In this document: one piece after another, positions 3,228 through 33,207 of the stretch
Numbering within the stretch: the stretch's first letter is position 1
How the letters are laid out: the number at the start of each line of letters is the position of its first letter
Assembly: GCA_000004695.1 (NCBI GenBank)
Contig: CM000151.3
Location: 1,952,001-2,016,000 of the forward strand
DNA length: 64,000 bases
Direction: 5' to 3'
DNA from: Dictyostelium discoideum
Lineage: Eukaryota
Program-made: the position numbers and the translations under genes
Notes under the pieces: generated by a model
The model's input: only the letters and a program-made list of their open reading frames with translations
The model's database searches: none
What the model was told of the DNA's origin: nothing

Positions 3228-4208
3228 ATGAAATTTAGACAATAAAAGAAGGCAGTGTAATTAAACAAGGTGGTAGAATAAAGAATTGGAAAAAAAGATG
3301 GTGTGTTTTAAATGAGGAAGGATTACATTATTTTAAATCTCAACATAGTATAGAAAAAGGTTCAATACTGTTGGCAGAGATAATATCAGTGGAGGGAGAT
3401 GATAAACCTGCAACTAAAAGAAAATATTGTTTCAAAGTTACAACCATCGATAGAAAATATAGAATATGTGCAACTGATTCATTGGATAGAGATGAATGGA
3501 TAAATTCAATTGAAAAACTTTTAAAATCAAAAGGATTATATAATATTGAAAATAATAATAATGGAACTGGTACAATTATAAAGGTACCTATATTATATTA
3601 ATGTATATATCTATACCCCCACCTAATTCACACACATATTAACATATTATGGATGAACATTTTTATTTTGTTTTATTTTTTATTAGACTTCAAAAAATGT
3701 AGATATTAATAAATTAAGGAGTGAAGAAGATGATGATTCAGAATCATCAACACATTCAAATAGTTATTTAGGTAGTAATTCAGTACCATCAATGAAAAAA
3801 ATAATTTTAACACCAATTATGGTATCATTAAAAGAAAAGTTTTCACAAAAAACATTTGCTGCAGAGTTAAATAGAAAGGTTAGTTGTTGTTGTTGTTTTT
3901 ATTATTATTATTATCATTACAAGACAGAGAGAGAGGGTTATTAATATGATGTTATGTTTATTAAAAAAAAAAAAAAAAAAAATTTATAGAAAGATTTATT
4001 ATCATTAGAAGAGACAGAAAGAGTTTTATCACTTTTAGATTCATATATTGATGGCGAAGTTGATGAATCACAAATTGAAAGAGATAGGGAAATTAAATTA
4101 ATTGTTAAACAAATTGCTCAAATGAAACAGGCTGAAATGGATGCAATAGAAAATAAATACAATCAAAAACGATTAGAGATTTTAGAAGAAATTAAAAGAA
4201 GGTCTTAA
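2958..4208 (+). CDS. PH (pleckstrin homology) domain protein, 4 exons: join(2958..2996, 3239..3583, 3687..3878, 3990..4208)
   Basis: Exon 2 encodes TIKEGSVIKQGGRIKNWKKRWCVLNEEGLHYFKSQ...KYCFKVTTIDRKYRICATDSLDRDEWINSIEKLL, a canonical PH fold (basic GG-R-KNWKKRWFVL strand, C-terminal W in the helix). Donors are gtacgt/gtacct/gttagt, acceptors are (t)nAG, and all phases are consistent. The C-terminal exon is coiled-coil-like (QIAQMKQAEMDAIENKYNQKRLEILEEIKRRS*). Confidence 0.7.
3130..3232. repeat. (TAAT)n/(AAAT)n tetranucleotide microsatellite inside intron 1 of the PH-domain gene
   Basis: Direct reading: attaattaattaattaattaataaataaataaataaataaataaataaataaataaataaataaataaatg. Confidence 0.8.
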
Positions 4209-4230
4209 TTAAAATTATAAGCTATCAACG

Positions 4231-4264
<34 letters not shown>

Positions 4265-4373
4265 TCAATTAAACCAATTAATGAATCATTATAAAGAAAT
4301 CAAAAAAAAACCCAAAACCAGTGTAAATCCAAAAAAAAAAATAAAAAAAAAATAAAAAAAAATAATAGAAATT

Positions 4374-4404
<31 letters not shown>

Positions 4405-5483
4405 AAAACATAAAAAGAAATTTATGAACCATAAAATAAAACCCACTTTTCTTCATTTTCTTGGACAATAAAAGATAAAAAAAAGGCAAATTTTTAAAAG
4501 AGGGTGTTAATTGAAATTTCTTTTTTTTTTTTTTGTTTTAAAAGTGATATTGTTTTTTTTTTTTTTATAATAATAGAAATAATTTAAAAATAAAAAAAAA
4601 TAAAAAATAAAAAAAAATCATAAAAGGGTTTAGTTTTTTATTTTTATTCATTTATATGTGTCACTCAACCACAGAGGGTATGACAATATTTTACTTTAAT
4701 ATAATTTTCTTTAAAAAAAAAAATAAAAAAATAAAAAACAAAAAAAAATAAAAAAGAGTGAAAAGAAAGCGATAATTATAATAAAAAAAAAAATTATAAT
4801 TTTTTAAACATTTGGCTATTTATAACCCACAATTAAATCATTTTTTTATTTTTTTTTTTTTTATTTTTTTATTTTTATTATTTTTTTTTTTTTTTTTGTA
4901 TTCTTTTTTTTTTATTATTTACACAATTATTTAGGTAACTATATATAATTAAATATATATTTTTTTTTAAAAATTTATATAAATCTAAATATAATTGTCA
5001 TTTATTAATATAAAAAAAGAAATCTTGTTATCGTTTAAAAAATAAAAGGTGTGTAAAACCAAAAATAAAAAAAAAAAAAAATAAAAATAAAAAAAAAATA
5101 AAAAAAAAAAAAAATCCTAAAAAATTTTTTTTAATTTTTTTTAGGAATCCAATTCATTTCGCTTAGAAAAAAAAAAAAAAAAAAAAAAAAAAATTAAAAA
5201 TAGTTATATAATAAAATTTCATAATAATAATAATAATAACAATTAATTTAACTAATAATACTAATAACAATTAATTATAAAAAAAAAAGAATAATCTAAA
5301 AAAATCAAAAAAAAAAATAATATTTTAAAATAATTTGTAATTTGTAATAATTTGTAATTTTATATTAATAAAGAAAAAAAAAAAAAAAAAAAAACAAAAA
5401 CAAAAACAAAAAAAAAAAATTTTAAAAAAAAAAAAAACATTTTTTTTTAATACATATAAATAAATAAATAAATAAATAAATAA

Positions 5484-7368
5484 ATGAGTGGTGTAGGAGG
5501 TGAATCAGTACATTTGAGAAGATCATCAACAACTGCGACAACCACAGGATCTAGTAAAAGTAGTTTAAATATAAGTAAGTCAGTTTCACCTACTGGTAAT
5601 AAAGCAGTTTCACCCATGAGTTCACCAAACTCATTGCAAAGTGGTGCAACTCCTACAATAGCACAATTACAAAGTTTATTAAAACAACAACAACAACCAA
5701 ATCATTCAATAACAACAAATAATAATAATAATAAATCAGTATCGGTTGAAATTGATGATTTAAAATCTCAACTACAACATTCAAATATAAACGATACCTT
5801 TAATGAAGATGAAGAAATTGAAGAAGTAACAGACGAGGTTATCATTAATCATGATTATCATTCATCTGAAGATGAATATGAAGATGATGAAGATGAAGAT
5901 GAAAATAATAATAGTGTAAATAATAATAGTAATAATAATAGTAATAATAATAATAATAACAATACAAGTATAAGTAGTGCACATAGTTGTGAAAGTATAG
6001 CAGAGGAAGAGGAACTTACAGCATCACCAATTTTATCAAGACAATATAGTTATACAATTGGTCATGGTACAAAACCTGATGTTGTTTTATCAATTGGCGG
6101 TGGATTCCATTCATCACCAAGATCAAATAGATCAGAGAGTACCATAGTTCATGAAGATGATCTCACAAATCAAAATGATAAAGTTATAAATGCAAAAGAT
6201 AAAATCTCTTCAGATTATAAAAGAATGATGGAAGATCCTGAAGCATTTAGAAATGAAAAATTAAAACAACGTAAATCAAAATTCTTTACAAAAAAAGGTT
6301 TGTTAAAAATATATATATATACACATAAAATAATAATATTAACTTTTTTATTTTATTTTTTTTTATTTAAAAAAAAATAGATTTAGAAGAAATACCATTT
6401 AATCCATCATCAGGTACTCAATTAAGATCAACATTATTTCAACAATTTATGAATGAAAAGATACAAATGATATCAGAGAATCCAGAGAAATATAAAAGCG
6501 AATTAATGAAATTTTATAAACAAAATTTGAAACCACAAGTACCTAAATCACCACAATCAAGTGGATCATTATCAACACATTCCGATAAATTAAAGACATC
6601 ATCGTCATTACAAAGAAGTAGATCAGTTAGTCAACCACCAGTTGTGACTGGTAATAGCAAGAATGCAATTGGTTCATTGGATACTATTTTAGAAAAGGAG
6701 AGAAAGAGGGATGGAAATCAAGATAGACAATTACCAATACTATTCACAAAGTGTGTTGATTTCCTCTCAAATGATGAAGCTTTAAAAACTGAAGGTCTTT
6801 TTAGAGTTGCAGGTAATTCAAGTGAAGTTGAAGATTTAATGAAATCAATATTACTCTATGGTTCCGATATTCCAAGTAATTGTTGTTATCATGTAGTTTC
6901 AAATATGTTAAAAAAGTTTTTACGTCAATTATCAACTCCAGTTTTCACTTTTAAATATCATAATGATTTCATCCAAACAATGAGTAAGTTTTAATTAATT
7001 TTATTCAAAATTACATATATATATCTATATTAATTTTATTTTATTAACTTTTTTTATTATTTTTTTTATTATTTTTTTTTCAAGAATTAAATAATGATGA
7101 AGAAAGAATTAAAGCAATTAAAGAGATTTTAAAATTAATACCACCAGTTAATCAATTATTAATTAAAGAGTTGATGAAATTTTTAGTAAAAGTAACTAGT
7201 TTTTCAAATGTTAATATGATGCATGCTCATAATTTAGGTTTAATGTTTGGTCCAAATATGTTAAAGGCGCCATCAGATTCTGAAATGAATGCAATTTCAA
7301 TGTTGGATGCTGGTAATCAAGTAATCACTTTATTAATTGAAAATTATAATTTATTTTATGATAATTAA
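5484..7368 (+). CDS. RhoGAP-domain protein, 3 exons: join(5484..6297, 6381..6983, 7085..7368)
   Basis: Exons 2-3 encode LPILFTKCVDFLSNDEALKTEGLFRVAGNSSEVEDLMKSI...LKKFLRQLSTPVFTF...LIKELMKFLVKVTSFSNVNMMHAHNLGLMFGPNMLK. This is the RhoGAP signature, including the arginine-finger GLFRVAG and the MxxxNLAxVFGP-like motif. The N-terminus is Ser/Thr/Asn-rich low complexity. Splice phases were checked: the exon 1-2 junction rebuilds codon GAT, and exon 3 enters at a ...tttcaag|AA acceptor. Confidence 0.75.
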
Positions 7369-8672: not shown

Positions 8673-10949
8673 ATGGATATTTTATATTTTAAAGTTTTTA
8701 AAAATATATATATAAACAAGAAAATTTGGAGTTTTGTAAAAAGATATGACAAAACATCAAAAAGGTATGATGAAATAATATCAATTAGTGAATTGCTTTC
8801 GCTTCATAATAATAAAAATAGAATGAAAATTACAGATCAAGATAGTAGTTTAATTGAACTATTAAAATATAAAATTAAAAGAGGAGATATAATTTTATTT
8901 GATTTTAATATTCAACAATTAATACAAGTTTTTTCTAAAAATGAACAAATTAAACATGATAGAGAATTCTTTAGATGTTTAGTAACCTACTATAAAGAGG
9001 AATTAATTTTTATACCAAATTTATTAGAATCATTTTGTAAATATGGTAATTTAATAGCATTAGAAGAAATTACAAATTTAGAAAAAAGCAATAACAACAA
9101 CAAATATAGTAATAATAATAATAATAAAATTAATAAAATTATATATTATGAAAATTATAAGGTTTCAAAGAAAGCATTTGATTTAGCAATTGAAGTTGGT
9201 GAATTTAAAATTATGGATTTTTTATTCAAGAATCGTAATGAAGGTTATACAGAAAGAGATATTCTTGAGAATATATTTTTAGAAAGTAATAGTAGTAAAA
9301 TGTGTTTAGTTTTCTTAAAGTATGCATTAAATACAATGTCTATAGATTTGTCAAAATGTAAATCAATTAATATAGATTGTTATTACCATTTACAGGATGA
9401 TTTAGAAATTGCAAATAAATTAAATGAATTTGGGTTAATTCATTTTCAAGGAATATCTTATCTTTATCATAATATACCTTTTCCAATTTTAAATACACCA
9501 AATGAATTATTAAATATAGTTAAATCATTTTTATTTATTTTAAAAAAGTATATTTATATAAAACAAGAAGATTACAATGAAGATTATTTTAATAATGAAA
9601 ATTTTGAATATCCAATACCAAAAAGACCACCAATTGAATTAATTGAAAATTTTATAAATAATGAATGTTTATTTACAAATGAAGAATTAGAATTTGATAT
9701 TATTTTAAATTTTAAAGAAACTGATAAAAGAATTGAAAAATTAATTCATTGGTATATATTATTATTTGAACCCTATGGTTTATTCTCTGAATCTGTTGAT
9801 TTAATTTATTCATATATTGCAAAGTATACTAATGATACAATTGAAGATAAACAATTGGTTAATAGAATTTTTAAAAATTCAAATGATTGGGATAAAAATT
9901 TAATTTTTACAATAATATTTTTAAATTGTAATTTTAATTTATTTAATTCATTTTTTAATCGTTTCAATAATTATAGTTATAATAATATTGCTATAAATGG
10001 TATTAAAATTGGAATTTCTTCTTTATTTTAAATAAATTCAAATGAAAAGATTTTACAATTTCTACAATTATTTTATAATAATTATGATTTTAATAGTAAT
10101 TTAAAAAATGAAATTTTAAATGTCATTTATCAACATTTAAAATCAAAATCAAAATTAGAATTATTTTCTCAATTATTTGATTTATTACCTATAAAATTTA
10201 AAGAATATTGTTTACTCAATTTAAATGATGAAAAGAAAATAAATAATAATAATAATATTAATAATATTAATAATATAACAACAATAATTTTACCACAAAT
10301 AGAAACAAAATTATTAATTGAAAAAAAAATAAATGACAATGATTATGGTTATGATAAAAATAAAAAAATGAAAATTGACCCAATAGAGTTAATTAAATTA
10401 CAAAGATTCGAAGAATTATTTGAAAAATATTTTACTTATTATGATGATAACACTAAAGCTTTACTTGAAAATGAAAAACTTTATATTGAAATTGGTAATA
10501 AATGTGTACAATTTGATGAATTACTTGATAGGTTTATTAAAGTATTAATTAATTTTAATTTATTGGAAAATTCAAAAGAGTTTATAATAAATTCAATTTT
10601 AATTAAATCAATTAAAAATGGATTTTTAAAGAATTTACAATACTTTTTAACAACTGATAATAGAAATTTATTTAAAATTTCAAATGAAATTATTATAAAG
10701 ATTTTATTAAATTCAGCAATTATTAATGATAATATTACAATGGTTTCTTATTTACTTTCAATTTTATTTCCTTTTTTATTTTTTAATAACAATCAAATAA
10801 TATCATCTCAAACAATTCCAAGAATTTCAACAGTAACAAAAGAAGAAAAAGAATTGTTATTAAGTATTAATGAACAATTAAATTCTATAAAATTAATTAC
10901 AAAAATGGAAAATTATTTAAAAAAAACAATACTTTTTTTTGATTTATAA
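8673..10949 (+). CDS. Member 1 of a lineage-specific paralogous family (ILYFKVFKN... N-terminus). A single reading frame is open from 8673 to 10949 except for one in-frame TAA at 10029..10031. The product would be about 758 aa, so the gene is either disrupted or two separate ORFs
   Basis: ORF 8673..10031 and ORF 10368..10949 are in the same frame (all coordinates are 0 mod 3). Codon-by-codon reading of 10032..10367 shows no stop in 112 codons of roughly 80% AT DNA, giving ...INSNEKILQFLQLFYNNYDFNSNLKNEILNVIYQHLKSKSKLELFSQLFDLLPIKFKEYCLLNLNDEKKINNNNNINNINNITTIILPQIETKLLIEKKINDNDYGYDKNKKMKIDP.... That region is therefore coding. The N-terminal motif MDILYFKVFKNIYINKKIWSFV matches the other two paralogues in the window. 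Confidence 0.6.
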
Positions 10950-28097: not shown

Positions 28098-28997
28098 TTA
28101 ATCTAATTTAAAATTTGAATTTTTTAAATATTCTCCAAATGTTGTGAATTTTGTAATTTTTGAAGCAATTGATTGATCTAAATCATTGAATACACCAAAT
28201 TCATTGTAAAATTCAAACATTGAAGCTAAATCATTAGCATTTGGGAATCCAAATGTACGGAATATTGAAGGTGGTATAAATTTGAATGTAACAGATTTAC
28301 CAGATACTTTGGAGAAGATATTGGCAATTTCAGGACCAGAAAGAGCTCCACCAGAGAATGGTACAACAACACCAGAATATTTATTTTCATTTAATAGGAT
28401 TTCACATACTATTGCACCGATATTATCAACATCACCCATATCCATTGGTTTGCCATTTGATGGTAAAGAGATTGTATAACCACCATCACCATTTTCATTC
28501 TTTTTTGGTACGAATGATTTAAAATTTTGATAATAAAATGGTGCATAAACGAATGAACTGATAAATGATGGATTGGATTCAGATAATTCTCTAACATATT
28601 CTTCAACTAAATATTTTTGGTCAAAATGTGGTACGATGATACGACCATTTGAAATCTTATTACATGGAGGAAGACCACTGAATACAAAGTGTTTAACACC
28701 AGCACCGAATGCAGCATCAGCTATCTTTTTACCAACATCGGTTTCATTTTGTGCAAAAGCAATTGTTAAAGCAAATACAGCATCACTACCTTTTAAAACT
28801 TCTTGAATAGCTTCTTTTGAATCGGTATCATTTGATTTTACAACTTCAGCTCCCAACTCTTTTAATGATTTTGATGCTTCACTACTTGGATCTCTTGTTA
28901 ATGCACGAACTTTAAAATTACCATTTTTTAATAATTCCCTAACAACTGAACTACCTTGTTGACCTGTTGCTCCAAAAACTGTAACTAATTTTGTCAT
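28098..28997 (-). CDS. NmrA-like family NAD(P)-binding protein (atypical SDR/isoflavone-reductase-like), single exon, 299 aa
   Basis: MTKLVTVFGATGQQGSSVVRELLKNGNFKVRALTRDPSSEASKSLKELGAEVVKSNDTD carries a Rossmann TGATGxxG motif and the NmrA-type N-terminus. The ORF is uninterrupted on the minus strand. Confidence 0.75.
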   Translation of the reverse strand: MTKLVTVFGATGQQGSSVVRELLKNGNFKVRALTRDPSSEASKSLKELGAEVVKSNDTDSKEAIQEVLKGSDAVFALTIAFAQNETDVGKKIADAAFGAGVKHFVFSGLPPCNKISNGRIIVPHFDQKYLVEEYVRELSESNPSFISSFVYAPFYYQNFKSFVPKKNENGDGGYTISLPSNGKPMDMGDVDNIGAIVCEILLNENKYSGVVVPFSGGALSGPEIANIFSKVSGKSVTFKFIPPSIFRTFGFPNANDLASMFEFYNEFGVFNDLDQSIASKITKFTTFGEYLKNSNFKLD

Positions 28998-29429: not shown

Positions 29430-31155
29430 TTATTTTATTTTATTTTTTTCTAATTTTTGTTTTTTAAGTGGTTGATCTTTAATTTCAGCATTACTGGCTG
29501 ATGTAGTTTCAGTTGGGGTTGTACTTGAGGTACTTGGTGCAGTACTAGTATTAGTAGTTGAAGTTGATGTTGTATCATTTTGTTGCTCTTGTTTTTGTTG
29601 TTGCTCTTGATGTGGTTGTTGTGGTTGTTGTGGTTGTTGTGGTTGTTGTGGTTGTTGTGGTTGTTGTTGTGTTTGTTGCTCTTGTTGTGGTTGTTGCTCT
29701 TGTTGTGGTTGTTGCTCTTGTTTCTCTTGTTGTAGTTGTTGTGGTTGTTGTGGTTGTTGTTGTGGTTGCTCTTGTTGTTGTGGTTGTTGTGGTTGTTGTG
29801 GTTGTTGTTGTGGTTATTGTTGTGGTTGTTGTTGTGGTTGTTGTTGTGTTTGTTGTTCTTTATTACCTTGATTTAATTTAATTGGTTTATATGGAGTAGT
29901 TGGAGTTAAAATTATACAAGCTCTATGATATAATTTTTCATATTCACTACCTTCATTACCGGTTTTCTCAGTAACTAACTTTTTATAAGATGGAGTACCT
30001 TTTAATGAGCCAACAACTACTTCAACAGGTACCTACCACCTATTTGACCACCCCCAAATTACACATTTCTCCACAATAAATGGAATAAGATACACATTCC
30101 TTAGTTTCACCCAAGTCAGAACTAGGAATATCACTTACACAAGCACGATCTTCATATAAAGTACCTTCCTCAGTGATATGAATAATACCTAATGTAACTT
30201 GAACTGATAATTTTGATTTAATTGAATCGAAAAAACTTGTAAGTACTATATCCCTATTTTTCAATTTCTTGAATCCAAAACTAGCAGGTGGATAACTCTG
30301 ATCAAGTACTAAGAAAAGTGATGAATTTATTTGATTATTTCTTTGTTTTTTTTCAAAATATTCAATAATACCCTCCTCAATAGTTGGTATAATTTTATTT
30401 GATTTAATAATTGATCCAATATCTATAGTTGTTGATGTGGAAGAATCAGATTTAATTAAATTATAAACTAAACATATACGTGTTCCCTCTGTAATTTCTT
30501 TAACTTCATGTTCGCAATCTGCATAGAATGCACAATATTTAATTGTTTTATTGGCACTTTCACCACTACCACTACCAACACCACTAATATTACTACTATC
30601 ATCCATTGATACTTTTACTTCATTACCTGAATGTCTAATATATAAATCACCACCTAAATGAGATGAAGGTAAATTTACAACTAATGTACCAAACATTTTA
30701 TCTTCTTTTTCTGTATCTTTATGTGATAAAAAGAATGATCCTTTATTATAAATTAATAGTTTATATAGGTTTGCTTTAACTTTATCCTTTTTAGCTAACC
30801 CTAAATCTGAGCATACACTTGGTAAAATATATTCTGAAACTATTTTATTGATTATAGTTGGTGTTTTTAATATTTTTGGATCCATTTGCCATACTTTTCT
30901 AACATTAGTATCTACAATGGTTTGTTCACCTTTACCAAATGGTGCTAGTTCACATTTTTCAATTATTTTTTCAATTGATTCATAAGTAACTGGAAATTAT
31001 AATTTAGGACCTTTCTTAACTTCAATATTTGGTATAACTTCACGAACAATTGAACCACTTGAATAATATGAACCAAATGATTCAATATTTTCAGGACTTT
31101 TTGAAACTTTTTGATTCAATTCTATATCACTTAATTCACTTAATTTTGAAATCAT
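29430..31155 (-). pseudogene. 2OG-Fe(II) oxygenase (prolyl-4-hydroxylase-like) gene with a PQQ/EQQ-repeat tail, apparently disrupted. In-frame TAA at 30997..30999, reading-frame break at about 30019..30042, and in-frame TAA at 29814..29816
   Basis: Minus strand from ATG 31153..31155 reads MISKLSELSDIELNQKVSKSPENIESFGSYYSSGSIVREVIPNIEVKKGPKL*FPVTYESIEKIIEKCELAPFGKGEQTIVDTNVRKVWQMDPKIL..., with TAA in frame (31155-30999=156). The frame continues through FLSHKDTEKEDKMFGTLVVNLP...GGDLYIRH...AFYADCEHEVKEITEGTRICLVYNL (HxD...H...R-x-L 2OG-oxygenase motifs) to TAG at 30040..30042. A second frame (first bases 2 mod 3) is open from 30035 to a TAA at 29430..29432: VPVEVVVGSLKGTPSYKKLVTEKTGNEGSEYEKLYHRACIILTPTTPYKPIKLNQGNKEQQTQQQPQQQPQQ*PQQQ...(PQQ/EQQ)n...NDTTSTSTTNTSTAPS...KDQPLKKQKLEKNKIK*. 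This frame has no ATG of its own and carries TAA inside the 9-bp repeat (caa caa TAA cca). The two frames cannot be joined by a normal-length intron. Confidence 0.55.
29588..29850. repeat. Imperfect 9-bp tandem repeat (GTTGTGGTT)n on the plus strand, equal to (CAACCACAA)n on the minus strand, encoding (PQQ)n/(EQQ)n
   Basis: Direct reading: gtggttgttgtggttgttgtggttgttgtgg... with variants ctcttgttg (EQQ). The ORF-track entries 29558..29881 (poly-V) are the antisense translation. Confidence 0.85.
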
Positions 31156-31283
31156 TTTATTTTATTTTTATTTTTATTTTTATTTTATTAAATTTTATTT
31201 TATTTTATTTTATTTTATTTTATTTCTATTGTAACTTAAACTAATTAAATTATTTATTTTTTATTTTTTATTTATTTATTTTT

Positions 31284-31342
<59 letters not shown>

Positions 31343-31839: not shown

Positions 31840-33207
31840 ATGGCAAAAAAGAAAATAGAAAGCAGTGATGAAAGTAGTAGTAGTAGTGATGAAAGCAGCA
31901 GCAGTATTGAAGTAAAAAAGAATAAAAACAAAAAACCAGAAACTAAAATAAATTCATCAAAAAGAAAACATGAATCATCTTCTTCAGAATCTGAAGTAGA
32001 CTCTAAAAAATCAAAATCAACCTCACACAAACTTTCAAAACTTTCAAAAAAACAAAGTGAAAGTGAAAGTGAAAGTAGTAGCAGTGAAAGTGAAAGTGAA
32101 AGTGAAAAGAGTAGCAGTAGTGAAAGTGAAAGTGAAAGTGAAAGTGAAAATAGTAGCAGTAGTGAAAGTGAAAGTGAAAGTGAAAGTGAAAAAAACCAAG
32201 ATAAAAAAAAGATAAATAAAAGTGATAGCGAAAGCGAAACTGATAGTGATAGCGAAAGCGAAGCTGACAGTGATAAAAAAAAAAAAGAAAGTGATAGTAG
32301 TGATAGTAGTGATAGTGAAAGTAGTGACAGTGATAAAGAAACTGAAAATAAAGATAAAAATAAAACCAATAAAAAAGAAAGCAGTAGTAGTGATGAAAGT
32401 GATAACAACTCATCTGCTGAAAGTTCAAGTGAGGAAGAAGAGGAAGATGAAGAGGAAGTAGATAAAGTTTTAATGGATATTGATACAAAAACTAAAAAAA
32501 GTCAAAAGGGTCAAAAAGAAAATGAAGATGATGAAGAAGAAGAAGAAGGGGATATAATTAAAAGTACAAAAGATTTATTAAATTTATTAGTTAATAATAA
32601 TAATAGTAGTATAACATCATCATTAAATTACCCAAATAAGAAAAGAATCTCAAAGAAAACTGAACAAGAAAAAGATTACTTTATTGACAAATCTTCAATT
32701 CTCTCAACTAGATTATTATTATTATTAAGAAAAACTTTATCATTACAAACTGATAATAAATTCTCATTATCAACATTATTCAATCAGTTATCATTTAATC
32801 AATCTTCCTCCTCTTCCTCCTCCACCTCAAACACAATTTCAACATACAGTGATTTAACACTTTGGAAAGATATTCAAAAAAATAATCAAAATATAATAAA
32901 TCAAACTGATCAACAAATAAAACTAAATGATAAGAAATCAACAAATAAATCTGATGAAAACAATATAAACAATAATAATAATAATAATAATAATAAGATA
33001 AACAAAAGTTTTAGAGACTTTTATGTAGATAGAATGACAAATCAATTTGGTGATGATTTAGATAAATTAAGAGATGACCCATATTATAAAGATAGTATGT
33101 TAACTATGATTTTAGAAAGTATGGAATCTGGTATCGATTTATATACAACTCAAGATAAATTATTATTATTAAAATCAAATAATAATAATAAACAAACAAA
33201 TAAATAA
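31840..33207 (+). CDS. Acidic Ser/Glu/Asp-rich protein ((SE)n, SDSE repeats, K-rich patches) with a short conserved C-terminal module (FRDFYVDRMTNQFGDDLDKLRDDPYYKDSMLTMILESMESGIDLY); candidate nucleolar/ribosome-biogenesis phosphoprotein
   Basis: A 455-aa single ORF. The N-terminal 230 aa is (SESESE)n/(SDSD)n with K-rich spacers, a pattern typical of CK2-phosphorylated nucleolar acidic proteins of the Srp40/Nopp140 or Rsa3 kind. The C-terminal 60 aa is non-repetitive. The family assignment is tentative. The minus-strand ORFs 31806..32408 and 32003..32488 are antisense artefacts of the repeat. Confidence 0.5.
   Translation: MAKKKIESSDESSSSSDESSSSIEVKKNKNKKPETKINSSKRKHESSSSESEVDSKKSKSTSHKLSKLSKKQSESESESSSSESESESEKSSSSESESESESENSSSSESESESESEKNQDKKKINKSDSESETDSDSESEADSDKKKKESDSSDSSDSESSDSDKETENKDKNKTNKKESSSSDESDNNSSAESSSEEEEEDEEEVDKVLMDIDTKTKKSQKGQKENEDDEEEEEGDIIKSTKDLLNLLVNNNNSSITSSLNYPNKKRISKKTEQEKDYFIDKSSILSTRLLLLLRKTLSLQTDNKFSLSTLFNQLSFNQSSSSSSSTSNTISTYSDLTLWKDIQKNNQNIINQTDQQIKLNDKKSTNKSDENNINNNNNNNNNKINKSFRDFYVDRMTNQFGDDLDKLRDDPYYKDSMLTMILESMESGIDLYTTQDKLLLLKSNNNNKQTNK
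32040..32200. repeat. (AGTGAA)n hexanucleotide repeat encoding (SE)n, with interspersed agtagcagt
   Basis: Direct reading: agtgaaagtgaaagtgaaagtagtagcagtgaaagtgaaagtgaaagtgaaaag... Confidence 0.85.

Follow-up and report, generated by a model that had tools for sequence, protein, structure and literature searches.

Prolyl 4-hydroxylases (P4H) of the PHD/EGLN type and their bacterial PPHD counterparts (PDB 4iw3, 4j25, 5l9b, 6f0w) share a double-stranded beta-helix, an HxD...H triad and an arginine past the distal histidine. They are the closest described likeness of the enzyme apparently once encoded at positions 29430–31155, on the minus strand, of a 64,000 nucleotide (nt) stretch of the Dictyostelium discoideum genome (contig CM000151.3, positions 1,952,001 to 2,016,000, hereafter 'the window', with a GC content of 21%), which was alike in all three respects. 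However, a dictyostelid member of this family, P0002, was only 14–19% identical to these proteins, with target-normalised template modelling (TM) scores of about 0.41–0.57, and two features set the family apart: the APFGKG motif, invariant and N-terminal, and a further conserved domain marked by TGNEG...YHRA. The Skp1 prolyl 4-hydroxylase PhyA (P4H1) of Dictyostelium is alike in organism, in superfamily and in its resemblance to PHD enzymes, but it is neither an orthologue nor a close paralogue; no protein of the standard laboratory strain AX4 was found among the homologues listed, and both architecture and conserved motifs differ. At a probability of about 0.9, the locus was interpreted as a unitary, non-processed pseudogene of D. 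discoideum, that is, a 2-oxoglutarate (2OG)-Fe(II) oxygenase gene carrying four disabling mutations. This is gene loss of the ordinary kind, and not an artefact, a duplicate or a gene rescued by splicing. As in the typical unitary pseudogene, there was a shared single copy in conserved synteny, with nonsense and frameshift lesions, an intact sister orthologue, and lesions or absence in related genomes; the only notable point was its recency, the rest of the frame and the catalytic residues still being intact.

The lesions were mapped by a four-way, base-level DNA alignment of the window with the orthologous loci of three relatives: L001 (ACTFIZ), L006 (ACTFIR) and L007 (ACTFIW), of which the last is intact (Table 1). 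Translation from the ATG ended after 52 residues, and therefore no functional oxygenase should be producible. The first TAA interrupted a conserved block, G.KL(Q/S)FPVT, with the invariant Pro55 three residues further on, and the intact gene has glutamine at the position of the stop. Judged by the aligned codons, lesions 1 and 4 are both CAA-to-TAA transitions. Downstream of the catalytic core the frame was broken twice; across lesion 2 the intact orthologue reads CNLWGGQIGGMLPVGVV, and the single-base gaps at lesions 2 and 3 were both present only in the window. The TAG triplets at 30040–30042 and 30033–30035 are by-products of the shifts, and not mutations of their own. Four single-base repairs produced one frame of 575 codons with all catalytic residues, the remaining two frames holding 36 and 85 stops.

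A sequence-only reading of the window had proposed that a 2OG-Fe(II) oxygenase gene decayed here through several disabling lesions of independent origin, and the orthologue alignment bears this out. All of its coordinates, for the ATG and for both TAA and both TAG triplets, were right; the motifs SHKD, CEHEV and RICLVYNL were present as it claimed, and the TAA in the repeat, which it took for a CAA-to-TAA transition, was indeed matched by CAA in L001. It held that no one indel could mend the frame break, as was found, two 1-nt deletions lying 23 nt apart. Its count of three lesions must be raised to four, since these deletions are independent of one another. Nor is the 10-nt segment taggtggtag, which it would have removed, an insertion; in the third frame this is part of (W)GGQIGG, comparable to WGGQIGG and GGGQING in the orthologues.

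Table 1. Features of the oxygenase pseudogene in the window, its flanking anchor, and the corresponding site in related genomes. Positions are those of the window unless a locus is named; A1 is a family alignment of 13 sequences.
Feature	Position	Strand	Evidence
Probable unitary pseudogene, PHD/P4H-like 2OG-Fe(II) oxygenase	29430..31155	-	575 codons after repair of four bases; collinear from start to stop with the L007 orthologue, 3440-5605
Ancestral start codon, ATG	31153..31155	-	First 20 codons encode the same amino acids in L007 (intact) and L006
Lesion 1, nonsense TAA at codon 53	30997..30999	-	CAA (Gln) in L001, L006 and L007
HxD iron ligands, H145-K-D147 (cat aaa gat)	30715..30723	-	Both ligands invariant in A1
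Distal His216 (cat, 30508-30510) to Arg226 (cgt, 30478-30480)	30478..30510	-	H216 and R226 invariant in A1; context CEHEV...GTRICLVYN
Lesion 2, 1-nt deletion, T lost	30054..30055	-	Ancestral AAT TTG TGG GGT GGT, window TTG-GGGGT; L006 and L007 read AATTTGTGGGGTGG
Stretch of 23 nt between deletions, off-frame to both sides, encoding (W)GGQIGG(R)	30032..30054	-	Third frame GGGQIGG matches WGGQIGGM (L007) and GGGQINGK (P0001)
Lesion 3, 1-nt deletion, C lost	30031..30032	-	Ancestral GGT A(A/T)G CTA CCT, window GGTAGG-TACCT; four-way alignment
Gln/Pro-rich (CAA/CCA) repeat tail, ancestral coding sequence	29590..29866	-	Uninterrupted and in frame in L007 (much longer there) and in P0001
Lesion 4, nonsense TAA in (CAA/CCA)n repeat	29814..29816	-	Aligned with CAA in L001; L007 tail without stop
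Conserved Ser/Thr-rich C-terminal end with basic KKQKLE motif and ancestral stop, TAA 29430-29432	29430..29589	-	Shared with L001, L006 and L007
Flanking NmrA-like gene, synteny anchor outside the pseudogene	28098..28997	-	100% identical to AX4 XP_644900.1 / Q86IG4
'D. discoideum' ACTFIW	L007, 3440-5605		Oxygenase intact: continuous intronless open reading frame of 721 codons, same N-terminus, uninterrupted tail
'D. discoideum' ACTFIR	L006		Oxygenase with a single deletion, of 2 nt, within a run of A
'D. cf. discoideum' ACTFIZ	L001		Two deletions close to the N-terminus (1 nt and 10 nt) that put a stop at codon 8; bridged by a 40-nt 'intron' of the annotators
D. dimigraforme	L003, 7299-8001		AT-rich spacer of ~0.7 kb in place of the oxygenase, no coding remnant
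D. citrinum	L008, 4932-6001		AT-rich spacer of ~1.07 kb in place of the oxygenase, no coding remnant

By its sequence the window matches the AX4 reference, because its NmrA-like gene is identical to XP_644900.1, and because the open reading frame (ORF) at 8673–10031 contains the AX4 protein DDB_G0272692 letter for letter, with an identical stop. The region is also present in another assembly of D. discoideum, ACTFIT by its locus-tag prefix (GCA_054883475.1; loci L002, L004 and L009), and all 1,726 bp of the pseudogene were found exactly in L002. With NmrA orthologues as anchors, the syntenic locus was fetched from the five further genomes of Table 1. The gene order DSPc phosphatase, adh_short, 455-residue gene, oxygenase, NmrA, 1017-residue gene was kept in four genomes, and the same genes flanked the oxygenase in L001, L004, L006 and L007. 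This orthologous position shows that the locus is not a retrocopy or duplicate; the parent being intronless, intron loss would be no guide to retroposition. The suggestion that the gene had been recently duplicated was therefore not upheld, the oxygenase being single-copy in a conserved syntenic position, without an AX4 paralogue among the homologues listed. Although the AX4 proteome was in the database, no annotated AX4 protein of the family occurred among the best 120 of 405 homologues (all E <= 1.5e-41).

Of six closely related genomes in the D. discoideum complex, one had an intact copy, three had copies with different, independent disabling mutations, and two had no copy at the site. A nucleotide-distance tree took the form ((AX4/ACTFIT, (ACTFIW, ACTFIR)), ACTFIZ), with D. 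citrinum and D. dimigraforme outside. At the syntenic site of these two species, tblastn found no oxygenase remnants, and the blastn matches were all AT-rich, of low complexity and confined to the intergenic flanks. As both species lie outside the gene-bearing clade, gain at the site is indistinguishable from loss. The NmrA locus L005 (ACTFIY) was paralogous, not syntenic, and was left out. Although labelled Dictyostelium discoideum, ACTFIR and ACTFIW showed 3.4–4.6% nucleotide divergence from AX4/ACTFIT across NmrA, adh_short and the oxygenase, where AX4 and ACTFIT diverged by only 0.15–0.4% over the stretches compared; to judge from these distances, ACTFIR and ACTFIW seem to belong to a cryptic lineage of their own instead of being strains of one species with AX4.

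The conceptual protein of the pseudogene matched 405 proteins at E <= 0.001, the best being P0001 (538 residues, 'D. cf. discoideum' ACTFIZ, 83% identity, E = 6e-220), a similarity far greater than chance would give. Against the Pfam model PF13640 (2OG-FeII_Oxy_3) it scored 25.6 bits (E = 2.4e-5), for a gathering score of 27 bits, and most homologues carried a precomputed match to this model. Family alignments of 13 (A1) and 65 sequences revealed invariant or near-invariant motifs, namely APFGKG..T.VD..VR..W, LYKLL.Y..G.FF..H.D.EK, FYADC.HE....G.R..L.YN, LK..D and TGNEG...E..YHRA, and every invariant column was kept in the window (H145, D147, H216 and R226). By analogy with PHD2, R226, about ten residues past the distal histidine, is presumed to bind the C5-carboxylate of 2-oxoglutarate. 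An AlphaFold2 model of the intact homologue P0002, rather than of the pseudogene product, had a predicted local distance difference test (pLDDT) value of 83.6, and its best Foldseek matches in the PDB were Pseudomonas PPHD, human PHD2 and Trichoplax PHD (E ~1e-6 to 1e-7, probability 1.0). Sequence and profile searches of the PDB found no meaningful relative, the sole match being a capsid protein (E = 0.39). Because the structural matches are distant and no PDB relative was found by sequence, the family is placed as an uncharacterised PHD/P4H-like clade, so far as these searches show. A search for literature on the locus, the family or the new assemblies turned up nothing specific.

The C-terminal sequence ...TETTSASNAEIK..DQPLKKQKLE was common to the window, L001, L006 and L007, and the distant homologue P0002 ends in KKQKIE. 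The attribution of the PQQ tail to the oxygenase thus stands, as the intact orthologue has both in a single continuous frame, and the KKQK(L/I)E end recurs in a homologue 42% identical in A1. The family was abundant in Verrucomicrobiota, Planctomycetota and Bacteroidota, where its members usually have ~750 residues, and patchy in eukaryotes, including Dictyostelia. Most of these bacterial members had an extra C-terminal helical region, and most carried a C-terminal extension of ~300 residues. Dictyostelid members were 31–36% identical to the proteins of these three phyla in A1 (family P0003–P0120), and the small number of eukaryotes that carry the family suggests an old horizontal transfer.

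Several observations weigh against the loss of function. The rest of the gene was very well preserved, with all invariant family residues kept; the pairwise ratio of nonsynonymous to synonymous divergence (dN/dS) between the window and L001, for the non-repeat part, was 0.33, neighbouring genes ranging from 0.10 to 0.52; and the GenBank annotators of ACTFIT called a 500-residue protein over exactly the span of the pseudogene. Residual function of a gene fragment would be compatible with the sequence taken by itself. With L001 as outgroup, the window branch had 14 nonsynonymous and 6 synonymous changes (pN/pS 0.62), compared with 8.5 and 13.5 on the sister branch of ACTFIW/ACTFIR (pN/pS 0.17), but this excess was weak (Fisher p = 0.04–0.07) and not specific, since the window branch of the intact NmrA neighbour carries 16.5 nonsynonymous changes to 3.5 synonymous ones. 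The substitutions on the window branch fit relaxed constraint, but weakly. One of them was a change from histidine to glutamine at a site that was histidine in 10 of 10 outgroups.

These observations can be accommodated by a late inactivation. As the dN/dS of 0.33 lies within the range of the neighbours, most divergence would have accrued under constraint, and the good preservation indicates that inactivation must be recent. Two nonsense hits on 114 nonsense-susceptible sites gave an estimate for neutral divergence since inactivation of ~0.018 (95% confidence interval 0.002–0.064), comparable in magnitude to the window branch in its entirety (20 changes over 1,248 sites).

It is improbable that a truncated, partly functional protein is still made, for instance by reinitiation at Met91. 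The ORF that this would use (30040–30885, 281 residues) was intact and held every catalytic residue of the HxD...H...R core, and overall dN/dS was below 1. However, the product would be without the invariant N-terminal block, APFGKG..T.VD..VR..W, and without the conserved second domain, TGNEG...YHRA, which was present in 65 of 65 aligned homologues, while the low dN/dS is accounted for by recent inactivation. The 281-residue catalytic ORF was sought in other assemblies and sequencing runs and was not on record, nor did any assembly on record have a gene for such a product.

A pseudogene could also be simulated by sequencing or assembly error, if the gene were really intact and its stops and frameshifts were consensus errors in AT-rich, repeat-rich DNA, as the sequence-only reading had allowed in citing locally poor consensus. 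One of the deletions does yield a run of five G, the lengths of poly-T and poly-A runs differ elsewhere between the window and ACTFIT, and an intact orthologue exists. Nevertheless, this explanation is very unlikely. ACTFIT was 99.6–99.85% identical to the window over the region, with 9 differing sites over 12.9 kb and 16 over 8.1 kb, none of them within 29430–31155. These 25 differences in ~21 kb, among them TAA/GAA at 10029, show that ACTFIT is not a copy of the AX4 reference, and yet both sequences, produced independently of each other, have the four lesions and the whole 1,726 bp in identical form. Furthermore, two lesions are base substitutions, and neither deletion is a homopolymer miscount of the ancestral sequence (TTGTGGGG to TTGGGGG; GCTACC to G-TACC). 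An intact orthologue had been named in advance as a sign of sequence error; such a copy was found, but in a lineage ~4% divergent and not in the same strain, and the same-species assembly keeps every lesion. The intact copy therefore represents the ancestral state, and not the correction of an error.

It is just as difficult to credit a functional gene from which very short or unusual introns remove the lesions, an arrangement implied by the 500-residue model that GenBank has for ACTFIT. GT..AG pairs bracket a 21-nt segment at lesion 1 and a 19-nt segment at lesion 2, excision of these restores the frame, and fifteen three-intron GT-AG combinations generated a 500-residue product; an exact-sequence look-up of ten of these fifteen solutions had no match in the collection. 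However, the intact orthologue is intronless and the candidate introns aligned codon for codon with its ORF, so that the 21-nt segment at the first TAA, already considered too short for an intron when the window alone was read, is coding sequence there. Any splice around lesion 1 would delete conserved residues beside the invariant Pro55. The candidate segments, of 19–21 nt, have an exon-like composition (29–47% GC) with the donors GTCCTA and GTGGTC, whereas a real intron in the neighbouring adh_short gene has 104 nt, 5.8% GC and the form GTAAGT...AAAG. There was no GT near lesion 4, where at least 96 nt of repeat would need removal, and chance alone keeps the frame open for many GT..AG pairs (24 of all listed pairs spanning lesion 1). 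The orthologue and the base composition together led to the rejection of mini-introns.

The same annotation set bridges the frameshifts of L001 and L006 with tiny 'introns'. GenBank models of 500 residues in ACTFIT (L002 3843–5568, L004 5843–7568), 501 residues in ACTFIR (L006 4019–5585) and 538 residues in ACTFIZ (L001 6001–7657) occupy the oxygenase locus. These three models are artefactual, real stops and frameshifts having been bridged by implausibly short introns, such as that of 40 nt in L001. An alternative genetic code or tiny introns like those of ciliates, considered on account of TAA at expected glutamines and the GT..AG segments of 19–21 nt, were rejected as the organism is D. discoideum; the neighbours, moreover, are long standard-code ORFs that use CAA for glutamine and end in TAA. 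Programmed recoding to a full-length protein has a negligible chance of being correct, having nothing beyond the well-preserved frames in its favour and needing two TAA readthroughs and two frameshifts in one messenger RNA, when the relatives encode the same protein conventionally and, because they are without these sites altogether, no slippery or stimulatory motif is conserved.

If the pseudogene is accepted, a sequence of events can be proposed. The ancestral gene was intronless and had about 575–720 codons in three parts. At the N-terminus was a 2OG-Fe(II) oxygenase domain with a double-stranded beta-helix of the PHD/P4H type; a second domain, beta-rich and conserved, closed with the TGNEG...YHRA motif; and the third part was a Gln/Pro-rich tail with the basic KKQKLE end. 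The gene may then have become dispensable in the D. discoideum lineage, which gained two CAA-to-TAA transitions (at codon 53 and in the repeat) as well as two deletions of one base each, separated by 23 nt. The four lesions probably arose after the split from ACTFIW/ACTFIR (~4% nucleotide divergence) and before AX4 and ACTFIT parted.

A further TAA, at 10029–10031 on the plus strand, had been grouped with these lesions by the sequence-only reading. It ends the AX4 gene DDB_G0272692 (402 residues in the database model), beyond which the frame, open over 8673–10949, continues for 306 codons. Orthologues of this gene have 758–777 residues, with glutamate at the position of the stop codon, and ACTFIT has GAA; therefore, this TAA shares no history with the oxygenase lesions and should be removed from the group. 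Five AX4/ACTFIT differences fell within the 8673–10949 frame (9996, 10029, 10194, 10501 and 10897), all at first or second codon positions, and AX4 was the odd one at all four sites compared with relatives (9996, 10029, 10194 and 10897). On this comparison the TAA is private to the AX4 sequence, and may be either a strain-specific nonsense mutation of AX4 or a reference error.

Other differences between the window and ACTFIT gather at homopolymer edges: 31936, 32196 and 32366, within the 455-residue Ser-rich gene (31840–33207), as well as 31701, 34393 and 24533. Among them were three G/T changes adjoining T-runs, and poly-T lengths were off by 3–5 nt. Such differences suggest consensus errors in one or other assembly that are specific to its sequencing technology. 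The NmrA-like gene had a pN/pS of ~1.3 on the AX4/ACTFIT branch and 0.2 on the sister branch, possibly through positive selection, through relaxation, or through gene conversion by an NmrA paralogue, of which there are many. Upstream of the pseudogene ATG, long (AAATA)n, (AAAT)n and (AAAATA)n microsatellites occupied the putative promoter (31160–31340), with a similar (AAAAT)n array in the L001 counterpart.

With respect to annotation, the locus should carry a pseudogene label, and the 500-, 501- and 538-residue GenBank models are unfit as protein sequences. The wider points concern misleading GenBank gene models of this kind and the repeated loss of a PHD-like oxygenase in the D. discoideum complex. 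On the pseudogene reading AX4, the standard laboratory strain, is naturally null for a PHD-like 2OG oxygenase, itself uncharacterised, whose gene is still intact in a close relative, which is relevant to anyone cataloguing the oxygen-dependent hydroxylases of Dictyostelium. It might tentatively be supposed, though the idea is doubtful, that the locus catches an uncharacterised two-domain PHD-like oxygenase family in the middle of its loss, and that the dictyostelid genes ultimately derive from bacterial transfer. If this is true, natural isolates would provide an allelic series, ACTFIW being intact and AX4 null, from which to learn what the enzyme hydroxylates.

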